Below, piece by piece: positions 27,880-28,366 of a stretch of DNA of 64,000 nt; position 1 is the first letter of the stretch, and each line of letters begins with the position of its first letter. Origin of the DNA: Bacteroidia bacterium (GTDB lineage Bacteria; Bacteroidota; Bacteroidia; M30B66); contig OZ257142.1 in NCBI GenBank assembly GCA_965279035.1, positions 2,057,302 to 2,121,301 of the forward strand, in the 5' to 3' direction. The position numbers were made by a program, and so were the translations under genes. The notes beneath the pieces are model-generated. The model saw only the letters and a program-made list of their open reading frames with translations. It did no database searches and was not told where the DNA came from.

Positions 27880-27943
27880 CTAAGGCCTAAAATACCTAAA
27901 TCAAATAAAAAAAGACCAAAGAGTATGAGGCTTTTTTGGGGGG

Positions 27944-28237
27944 CTAAGTGTTCGAACCTTGACCCTCCCGACTATTTTCGGGATGCTCTGAATCAGCAAT
28001 TAGCTTCTCAATTAATTTTCTACTCTTCCAACTTTTAATTTGTTTTTCTCTTTTTAAAGCTAGATCCTTTGTTTGATAGCATTCTTTATTTCGAATATTC
28101 CAATCAGCTAATTTTCCTGTAAATCCTTTGTGTTGCGAATTATGTTTTCTTAATCTTTCTTCAAGAAAATCCCCAGTATATCCAACATAGTATTAATCTA
28201 ATGTTCTGGAATATAGTATATAGACATAAAATGGCAT
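27944..28237 (-). pseudogene. GIY-YIG nuclease family protein (about 97 codons) with one in-frame TAA after codon 14; 3' end overlaps a tRNA-like sequence
   Basis: Minus-strand translation [79 protein letters not shown]... has the GIY-YIG hallmarks YVYIL and YVGYTGD. Confidence 0.65.
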
Positions 28238-28258
28238 ATTGTATTTAAATATATCAAA

Positions 28259-28289
28259 TAAAAAAAGCCCCACGAGTGTGAGGCTTTTT
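28259..28289 (-). terminator. Rho-independent terminator downstream of tRNA-Val
   Basis: Minus-strand RNA agccucac-acuc-guggggcu followed by a U6 run. Confidence 0.6.
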
Positions 28290-28291
28290 AG

Positions 28292-28366
28292 TGGGAGCTA
28301 CTGGGTTCGAACCAGTGACCCTCTGCTTGTAAGGCAGATGCTCTGAACCAGCTGAGCTAAGCTCCC
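28292..28366 (-). tRNA. tRNA-Val (anticodon TAC)
   Basis: Sense strand gggagcttagctcagctggttcagagcatctgccttacaagcagagggtcactggttcgaacccagtagctccca. Cloverleaf with 7-bp acceptor stem and anticodon loop cuUACaa. No encoded CCA. Confidence 0.9.

Follow-up and report, generated by a model that had tools for sequence, protein, structure and literature searches.

The DNA analysed here, hereafter the window, is a stretch of 64,000 nucleotides (nt) from the genome of a Bacteroidia bacterium (GenBank assembly GCA_965279035.1, contig OZ257142.1, positions 2,057,302 to 2,121,301 of the forward strand). Our subject is a small element on its minus strand, in which a tRNA-Val(UAC) gene with a terminator-like hairpin is followed by an open reading frame (ORF) of the GIY-YIG nuclease superfamily that runs into a degenerate second copy of the same tRNA and terminator (Table 1). 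The tRNA-Val is a functional gene and constitutes both the anchor and the upstream repeat of this unit, which we term a cassette. The ATG of the GIY-YIG frame (28237) is located 22 nt downstream of the end of the T-run, and with codon 15 repaired the frame matches PF01541 over residues 3-73 with 51.2 bits (cutoff 22.6, E 1.6e-13) and the profile of its own family with 121.8 bits; no NCBIfam model matches the protein. An alignment of 23 family members, the window copy included, revealed that Y6, Y17, G19, R28, H32, N33 and E64 are invariant. A preliminary description of this locus had taken the frame to be open from its ATG; instead, a TAA stands where the family has Lys15 and no in-frame start occurs downstream of it, and hence the window copy is a pseudogene. 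The same codon, normally lysine, is a premature stop in one other, independent copy (at 3340 of locus L003 of the comparative sample described below), which might be a coincidence.

The last ~20 codons of the frame are encoded by the 5'-truncated pseudo-tRNA-Val. The segment 28005-27897 aligns with 28358-28250, which extends from the D loop of the tRNA through the T arm, 3' acceptor strand and terminator to a TTTTTTTATTTGAT run, with 87 of 104 positions identical and a score of 102, about 30 standard deviations above 500 shuffled controls (mean 17.3, s.d. 2.8, maximum 28). This bears out the duplication of tRNA-Val and terminator at the 3' end of the GIY-YIG frame noted in the preliminary description, as well as the broken acceptor stem and 6-nt loop given there for the copy: the 5' acceptor strand is absent, the loop has 6 nt and the T stem is degenerate. 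Neither ARAGORN nor the Rfam tRNA model (E<10) calls the pseudo-tRNA in the window; a covariance model (R1) trained solely on tails from 49 other genomes recovers 27931-27999 with 51.8 bits (E ~2.5e-12), and this model scores real tRNAs as high as tails and does not discriminate between them. The anticodon-arm segment, earlier described as merely divergent, is a perfect palindromic stem (TCCCGA/TCGGGA) of a type that recurs throughout the family. With 6 nt, its loop falls 1 nt short of the usual 7; hence the TAG in the loop is out of frame and the window frame acquires an extra 11-residue ending. The terminal TAG (27944-27946) is not within the T loop, where it had been placed, being 3 nt 3' of the GTTCGAAC box, which is itself translated as G-S-N. 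When folded alone, the 116-nt tail RNA is no better than shuffles (z = -0.96). With its nonsense codon, shortened loop and degenerate T arm the window cassette is decayed.

A further module with a fragment of the GIY-YIG C-terminus had been pointed out, and it proved to be real although very decayed, retaining only residues ~36-94. At the DNA level it is 68% identical over 25293-25594 (score 121 versus 34 +/- 5 in shuffles), at the protein level residues 60-94 are recovered by tblastn (E 1e-3) and residues 36-78 by the family profile (iE 0.003), and the covariance model gives it just 9.1 bits, which is not significant. This second remnant, 2.5 kb from the window cassette, is the older of the two.

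Table 1. Coordinates of the cassette features in the window, and of 5'-partial pseudo-tRNAs at other loci (prefixed by the locus)
Feature	Position	Strand	Basis
tRNA-Val(UAC) gene	28291..28366	-	ARAGORN; Rfam RF00005, 71.8 bits
Terminator-like hairpin and T-run directly 3' of tRNA-Val	28259..28289	-	sequence; spacer fold -18.4 kcal/mol
GIY-YIG nuclease pseudogene, 97 codons with in-frame TAA at codon 15	27944..28237	-	translation, Pfam PF01541, family profile
Premature TAA replacing family Lys15	28193..28195	-	translation, family alignment
5'-truncated pseudo-tRNA-Val (3' part of D arm, family hairpin, variable loop, degenerate T arm, 3' acceptor strand)	27931..28005	-	tRNA alignment, covariance model
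Family hairpin TCCCGA-AAATAG-TCGGGA in place of the anticodon arm	27966..27983	.	perfect 6-bp palindromic stem
Second terminator hairpin and T-run, then duplicated ATTTGAT	27906..27937	-	alignment to first copy
Heavily decayed second cassette (ORF residues ~36-94, hairpin remnant CCCGAAAACAGTCGG, start of T arm)	25293..25475	-	DNA and protein alignment
5'-partial pseudo-tRNAs	L020 1-226
5'-partial pseudo-tRNA	L003 2812-2870
5'-partial pseudo-tRNA	L025 2816-2876
5'-partial pseudo-tRNA	L019 2805-2870

A GIY-YIG family linked to tRNA genes

Protein searches recovered 1292 relatives, the top ones being 82-105 residues in length. Of 114 top relatives 75 end in the pattern x-H-[PS]-[DGA] (e.g. '...KLIAGSEHPD(L)') and longer ones end in '...SSAGSEHPDFQSGGSLVRTQ' or '...SEHPDFQVGRVGGSNPS'; these C-terminal endings are the translation of tRNA D and T arms. 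In an exhaustive profile search the relatives amounted to 1392 clusters at 50% identity with E<=1e-10 and 9123 with E<=1e-3. One genome per species was scanned, which gave 80 Bacteroidota loci spanning Chitinophagales, Cytophagales, Sphingobacteriales, Flavobacteriales and Bacteroidales. Upstream of the ORF, a same-strand tRNA ends less than 200 nt away in 56 of these loci, a contig break occurs within the same distance in 13, the tRNA is more distant in 2, and ARAGORN finds none in 9, six of which still have a tRNA-like element just upstream. The nearby tRNA is a genuine tRNA-Val(UAC) in 47 of the 56 cases and tRNA-Lys(UUU), -Arg(UCU), -Met or -Val(GAC) in the others. Nearly every ORF continues into a pseudo-tRNA, and at the Lys, Arg and Met loci this tail scores much higher against the cognate tRNA (56-132) than against tRNA-Val (21-55). 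The preliminary description had made its proposal, a GIY-YIG element tied to tRNA genes and their duplication, depend on whether the 3' ends of relatives elsewhere resemble tRNA; they regularly end in sequence of the neighbouring tRNA, with z-scores of 20-50 against shuffles, and the proposal is strongly supported. The tRNA-linked arrangement is a family-wide feature, widespread in Bacteroidota and extending well beyond the window. A live cassette can be described as a promoterless, stand-alone GIY-YIG gene for 80-87 residues just past the terminator of a tRNA, usually tRNA-Val(UAC), whose 3' end runs into a 5'-truncated pseudo-copy of the same tRNA with its own copy of the terminator. As a separate observation, many contigs stop within ~100 nt of these ORFs, which resembles repeat-induced assembly breaks.

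The region between tRNA and ATG consists of a terminator-like hairpin and T-run in 48 of 53 distinct spacers, which have a median length of 36 nt; likewise in 48 of the 53 the ATG follows the T-run by 0-10 nt, and in 16 cases immediately. The -7 motif of Bacteroidetes promoters, TAnnTTTG, is present in none of the 53 spacers. As the spacer leaves no room for a promoter, the simplest inference is that the ORF is probably transcribed by read-through from the tRNA promoter.

Tandem arrays are present at 21 loci, each with two to six or more cassettes at a period of ~340-470 nt and with up to 6 identical 350-nt units; some copies are identical, as in L056, L057 and L029, and some are old. In L014 two ORFs are 71% identical and their pseudo-tRNAs 94% identical, loop included, an excess of pseudo-tRNA over ORF identity that indicates concerted evolution. 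In L043 (2774-2847 and 3242-3322) the ORFs of the tandem units are 100% identical and the T arm of the second unit is an inverted copy (21/22) of its own hairpin; given the identity of the two ORFs, this copying of the hairpin must have been a recent event. Internal stops are found in just 4 of 101 ORF copies and diverged paralogues have ratios of nonsynonymous to synonymous substitution rates (dN/dS) of 0.05-0.12; with so few internal stops and a dN/dS of ~0.1, purifying selection acts on the GIY-YIG protein. Among loci sampled through FolC instead of the nuclease, five have the FolC-tRNA-Val synteny of the window: L128, L130, L131 and L160 are empty, with tRNA and terminator only, and L133, like the window, is occupied, these being distant lineages with FolC 47-50% identical and not strains of one species. 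In the otherwise empty site of L130 (1600-1640) the sequence GTCCGCTTTCGGGATTCGAAC after the terminator resembles a remnant of hairpin and T loop and is perhaps the scar of a lost cassette.

More distant GIY-YIG subfamilies show a related layout. In L171 (2300-3700) and L170 (2300-3200) tandem ORFs are parted by just a tRNA-like module, which in L171 has the hairpin TCCCGA-CTAG-TCGGGA within a class-II-like pseudo-tRNA with a long variable arm and no D arm; the following ATG adjoins the 3' acceptor end of this pseudo-tRNA without a spacer, and L170 is similar. The fold of the L171 element is not significantly better than that of shuffles. Its hairpin, read in another frame, encodes 'VPTSRD' and its T loop 'RFES', both of which are found in the database proteins P0126 and P0205. 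These two, together with P0121 and P0128, are predicted two-domain 'GIY-YIG' proteins of 166-214 residues that represent a frame crossing the pseudo-tRNA into the next cassette.

The pseudo-tRNA and its hairpin

Identity between the tail and the neighbouring tRNA was computed by segment over 56 distinct loci. It is 83% in the D-arm part, 60% in the anticodon arm, 89% in the variable loop, T arm and 3' acceptor strand (29/29 in most loci) and 74% in the 30 nt downstream. A perfect stem Y-CCG-N/N'-CGG-R stands in for the anticodon arm in 78 of 96 distinct tails, in 8 variants, with CCCGA/TCGGG present in 50 tails; the full family hairpin is T-Y-CCG-N...N'-CGG-R-A, with a loop of 3-12 nt and free sequence. 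The five core pairs were the selection criterion and their near-100% pairing holds by construction; the two flanking pairs lie outside this criterion and are paired in 50/50 and 29/30 tails. All four Watson-Crick pairs (A-U, C-G, G-C and U-A) are seen at the fifth position of the stem, and two (C-G and U-A) at the first. The stop codon of the ORF precedes the hairpin in 27 tails, falls within it in 35 and follows it in 16, and the residues encoded by the hairpin vary with the stem (HPD, HSA, HPG and others); because both the position of the stop and the encoded residues vary, protein coding is no explanation for why the hairpin is conserved. A codon bias at Leu79, sought as a sign of constraint on the D stem, is mild (CTN 69% versus 47% elsewhere). 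Among 104 real tRNAs (~1.08 Mb) none has the family stem, and no tRNA source of the hairpin was found.

The 5' acceptor strand is missing from most tails, and the 5' strand of the D stem from many; complete cloverleaf tails above the Rfam tRNA threshold are found in L055 (47 bits), L052 (40-42 bits) and L078 (37.6 bits). With Rfam 15, searched against the window and 17 loci, the sole match is the generic tRNA model, on the better-preserved tails. Several variants of the pseudo-tRNA were also observed. Insertions in the T loop recur in pseudo-tRNAs from different orders (L037, L039, L062, L133; L025, L041), in each of which the flanking T stem and acceptor match the local tRNA; one type has ~35-45 nt with '..GCTCACGAGC..GAGTAAT', and the other is a second family-type hairpin, TCCCGATAGCTATCGGGA, in L025 and L041. 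Partial pseudo-tRNAs that comprise the 5' acceptor strand, D arm and family hairpin, some reaching to the T loop, occur upstream of the real tRNA (Table 1); in L020 there are three tandem units of 68 nt that end right after the hairpin. L052 contains at 2530-2950 four tandem full-length pseudo-tRNA-Val units with the hairpin stem, a UAC-containing loop and their own terminators, with no ORF, and in view of their Rfam scores annotation pipelines may call them tRNAs. L061 has at 3375-3391, ~85 nt past the last cassette, a stray duplicate, 17-22 nt long, of the real tRNA-Arg anticodon arm together with part of its D stem, the sole stray copy of a real anticodon arm near a cassette among the loci.

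A proposed mode of persistence at tRNA loci

We propose that the cassette is a tRNA-parasitic element resembling a homing endonuclease, which persists through recombination between tRNA and pseudo-tRNA and of which the window holds a dead copy, a reading to which we give about an even chance. Here the ORF would be read through from the tRNA promoter. The tRNA and pseudo-tRNA form direct repeats of ~100 nt, between which recombination and gene conversion would take place. Such conversion would keep the D arm, variable loop, T arm and 3' acceptor strand of the pseudo-tRNA identical to the local tRNA, and the same recombination would yield both the tandem arrays and losses of the cassette. The 6-bp palindromic hairpin, which often holds the stop of the ORF, would mark the pseudo-copy and escape overwriting. 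The nuclease might promote recombination by homing or segmental amplification, in the manner of phage SegB at tRNA genes, although this stimulation is a conjecture by analogy. A break in a redundant tRNA copy, if repaired from a hairpin-bearing copy, would produce just the chimeras observed, in which cognate D and T arms surround the family hairpin, and the cassette would be a selfish resident of tRNA loci. The comparative data show the direct repeats that bracket the gene, their homogenisation with the local tRNA, tandem amplification and loss, and selection on the protein; from these patterns we infer the read-through, the nuclease activity, the break-induced recombination and this role of the hairpin.

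Several observations weigh against this proposal. The family proteins contain the GIY-YIG domain only, within their 80-87 residues, and thereby differ from characterised homing endonucleases, which have a DNA-binding domain; any further C-terminal residues are translated pseudo-tRNA. No relatives were found in 2.9 million viral contigs, and nothing indicates horizontal movement of the cassette: pairwise ORF identities are flat at 50-65% irrespective of taxon or tRNA type. (The contexts of P0099 and P0015 have copies from the same species only and are uninformative on mobility.) Real anticodon arms vary between lineages and no common target sequence is evident in them, and if the hairpin were an immune allele the upstream real tRNA, which keeps a normal anticodon arm that looks cleavable, would be left exposed to cutting. 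Conversion of a D-arm segment of ~15 nt is hard to explain by RecA-type recombination. Lastly, 96% intact ORFs and strong purifying selection fit a gene useful to the host at least as well as they fit a selfish cycle of invasion and decay. Of the homing-like nature envisaged in the preliminary description, the link to tRNA stands strongly; the proteins, however, are small and without a DNA-binding domain, they have no viral relatives, and the local gene is dead.

The main rival is a function at the RNA level, in which tRNA and pseudo-tRNA serve as processing or stability elements of a promoterless mRNA ('tRNA punctuation'): RNase Z or P would free the mRNA by cleavage at the upstream tRNA, and the tail with its hairpin would protect its 3' end or constitute a stable tRNA-like RNA. 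The ATG directly after the tRNA terminator, or after the 3' acceptor end of the pseudo-tRNA in L170 and L171, would be expected in this case, as would a hairpin whose stem is kept by compensatory changes while the loop is free, the complete cloverleaf tails of L055, L052 and L078, and the solo full-length pseudo-tRNAs that stand in tandem without ORFs in L052. However, for most tails RNase P/Z or CCA recognition is unlikely because the 5' acceptor strand is missing, many lack the 5' strand of the D stem too, and the folds of the window tail and the L171 element are not significantly better than those of shuffles. Moreover, identity to the neighbour often extends to the 3' acceptor strand, although it is unpaired, and even to the terminator, a pattern that speaks for homogenisation of DNA and not for selection on RNA. 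We regard an RNA-level role as rather unlikely; the missing 5' acceptor strand of most tails argues against such recognition also under the suggestion made earlier, of an mRNA with a functional tRNA-like 3' structure, and the compensatory changes in the hairpin leave room for a structural role. Decidedly unlikely, in our estimate, is a domesticated host gene with a cellular role such as repair, inherited beside tRNA-Val since early Bacteroidota, with the pseudo-tRNA as a by-product of old tandem duplications and ordinary gene conversion. Such a gene would account for the 96% of ORFs that are intact, the dN/dS of ~0.1, the absence from viral contigs, the phylum-wide distribution mostly at tRNA-Val, and a nearest solved relative, 1ZG2, from the housekeeping-type family UPF0213. 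It sits poorly with the variable copy number and identical tandem copies, the use of at least four tRNA isotypes, the empty and occupied sites within one synteny group, and the presence of pseudogenes and remnants, the window's included; and neither the invariant remodelling of the anticodon arm nor the hairpin copies in T arms would be expected of by-products.

The general order of RNA gene, terminator and small nuclease ORF, together with the four tandem pseudo-tRNA repeats that precede one ORF in L052, recalls an RNA-protein toxin-antitoxin or defence module of the type III kind in which the terminator sets the ratio of RNA to protein. We consider this very improbable: the GIY-YIG domain is a DNase fold, the upstream RNA in most loci is an ordinary housekeeping tRNA, the pseudo-tRNA is usually downstream and not upstream of the ORF, and neither PADLOC models (E<=1) nor PHROGs gave a hit. 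The flanking direct repeats that include the 3' part of the tRNA, and an IS4-like element nearby, could instead suggest the duplication of an attachment site by an integrase-type element, or a local incidental remnant. The comparative data contradict this reading, which we consider extremely improbable. A local accident is ruled out by the recurrence of this layout in dozens of genera; the insert consists of one 250-nt ORF; the repeat begins in the D arm and the anticodon arm is remodelled; and no integrase or recombinase gene is present among the window ORFs of 23.9-29.7 kb (GT4, DUF5829, IS4-like DDE transposase, FolC), nor is an integrase found in the inspected loci L081-L089.

Returning to a tRNA-parasitic cassette, a bolder form is conceivable, in which the minimal GIY-YIG protein and the 6-bp hairpin make up a new mobile or homing system that overwrites stem-loops in redundant copies of tRNA genes, for the most part the anticodon arm but at times the T arm too. 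It would turn these copies into nuclease-resistant pseudo-tRNAs and take the promoterless nuclease gene with it, the tRNA loci serving as landing pad, promoter source and recombination substrate. This possibility we regard as doubtful.

Relation to known systems and neighbouring features

SegB is a phage GIY-YIG homing endonuclease, encoded among tRNA genes, which cuts inside tRNA genes at the motif RAWTSGAAC and which with the recombination proteins UvsX and UvsY leads to recombination-dependent tandem amplification of tRNA and segB, truncated copies being found in the arrays (PMC13096335). The cassette protein shares with this Seg type of T4-like phages the GIY-YIG catalytic domain and a gene among tRNA genes; the tandem arrays of tRNA-like elements and ORFs in the window's family resemble those of tRNA and segB, and the SegB motif is itself T-loop-like. 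However, SegB is phage-borne and has ~220 residues including a DNA-binding part, whereas the cassette proteins, with their 80-87 residues, are chromosomal and without viral relatives. A further difference is the fusion of the cassette ORFs to a pseudo-tRNA remodelled by the family hairpin. Lacking a DNA-binding domain, the cassette protein is not a Seg-type homing endonuclease, yet it may act like one. Within the GIY-YIG superfamily it appears nearest to the small stand-alone type of UPF0213/COG2827 (B. halodurans BH0048, PDB 1ZG2; E. coli YhbQ), which has the same single-domain size and motifs; 1ZG2 is the only solved relative found by sequence, and the similarity is weak (E 0.007, residues 2-82). 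We know of no UPF0213/COG2827 genes that are linked to tRNA or end in tRNA-derived sequence.

Integrative elements that target tRNA genes likewise have an intact tRNA on one side, a partial copy on the other and direct repeats around the insert; unlike them, the cassette has no integrase, its insert is one tiny ORF, its repeat extends from the D arm to past the terminator, its anticodon arm is replaced and its units are tandemly amplified. tRNA punctuation and tRNA-like 3' elements occur in mitochondrial transcripts, in MALAT1 mascRNA and in the tRNA-like structures of plant viruses. The cassettes share with them tRNA-shaped modules flanking an ORF and an ATG right after the module; they differ in that most tails are without an acceptor stem. 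In REP/RAYT and IS200/IS605-type systems short palindromic hairpins are tied to an HUH nuclease. The resemblance here consists of a short palindromic stem, conserved but with a free loop, beside a small nuclease gene, and of a hairpin that can appear at new positions and inverted, as in L043; in contrast, the cassette nuclease has the GIY-YIG fold, its hairpins occur solely on tRNA-like scaffolds, and there are no defined ends. No integrase, defence-system model or Rfam family explains the locus, and no published description of GIY-YIG genes fused to pseudo-tRNAs in Bacteroidota was found in the searchable full-text literature.

If the proposed tRNA-parasitic reading is correct, the cassette would be a much smaller chromosomal counterpart, in a major bacterial phylum, of the relationship between phage SegB and tRNA: the gene of an 85-residue nuclease that resides at tRNA genes, uses their promoter and remodels tRNA gene arrays through recombination. 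It bears on the evolution of tRNA copy number and of pseudo-tRNAs, on the role of stand-alone GIY-YIG proteins and on the minimum size of a selfish nuclease element. As regards sequence databases, GIY-YIG endings such as '...GSEHPD', 'VPTSRD' and 'RFES' are translated pseudo-tRNA, from which the fused two-domain proteins likewise arise, and contig breaks at cassette loci are probably effects of repeats on assembly.

Elsewhere in the window a tRNA cluster, Thr(UGU)-Tyr-Gly(UCC)-Thr(GGU) at 62762-63230 on the plus strand, has no adjoining GIY-YIG cassette, the cassette being confined to the tRNA-Val locus. In L062, CRISPR-like direct repeats (5897-6170; Rfam CRISPR-DR49, below threshold) lie ~2.6 kb past the cassette array and are probably incidental. 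The two cassette copies of the window are separated by a block on the minus strand (25629-27879) in which a DUF5829 gene is apparently split into an N-terminal part (27277-27879) and a probable C-terminal part (25629-26018). An IS4-like element is inserted within it, and its transposase is frameshifted into a DUF4372 frame (26794-27210) and a DDE_Tnp_1 frame (26018-26839).

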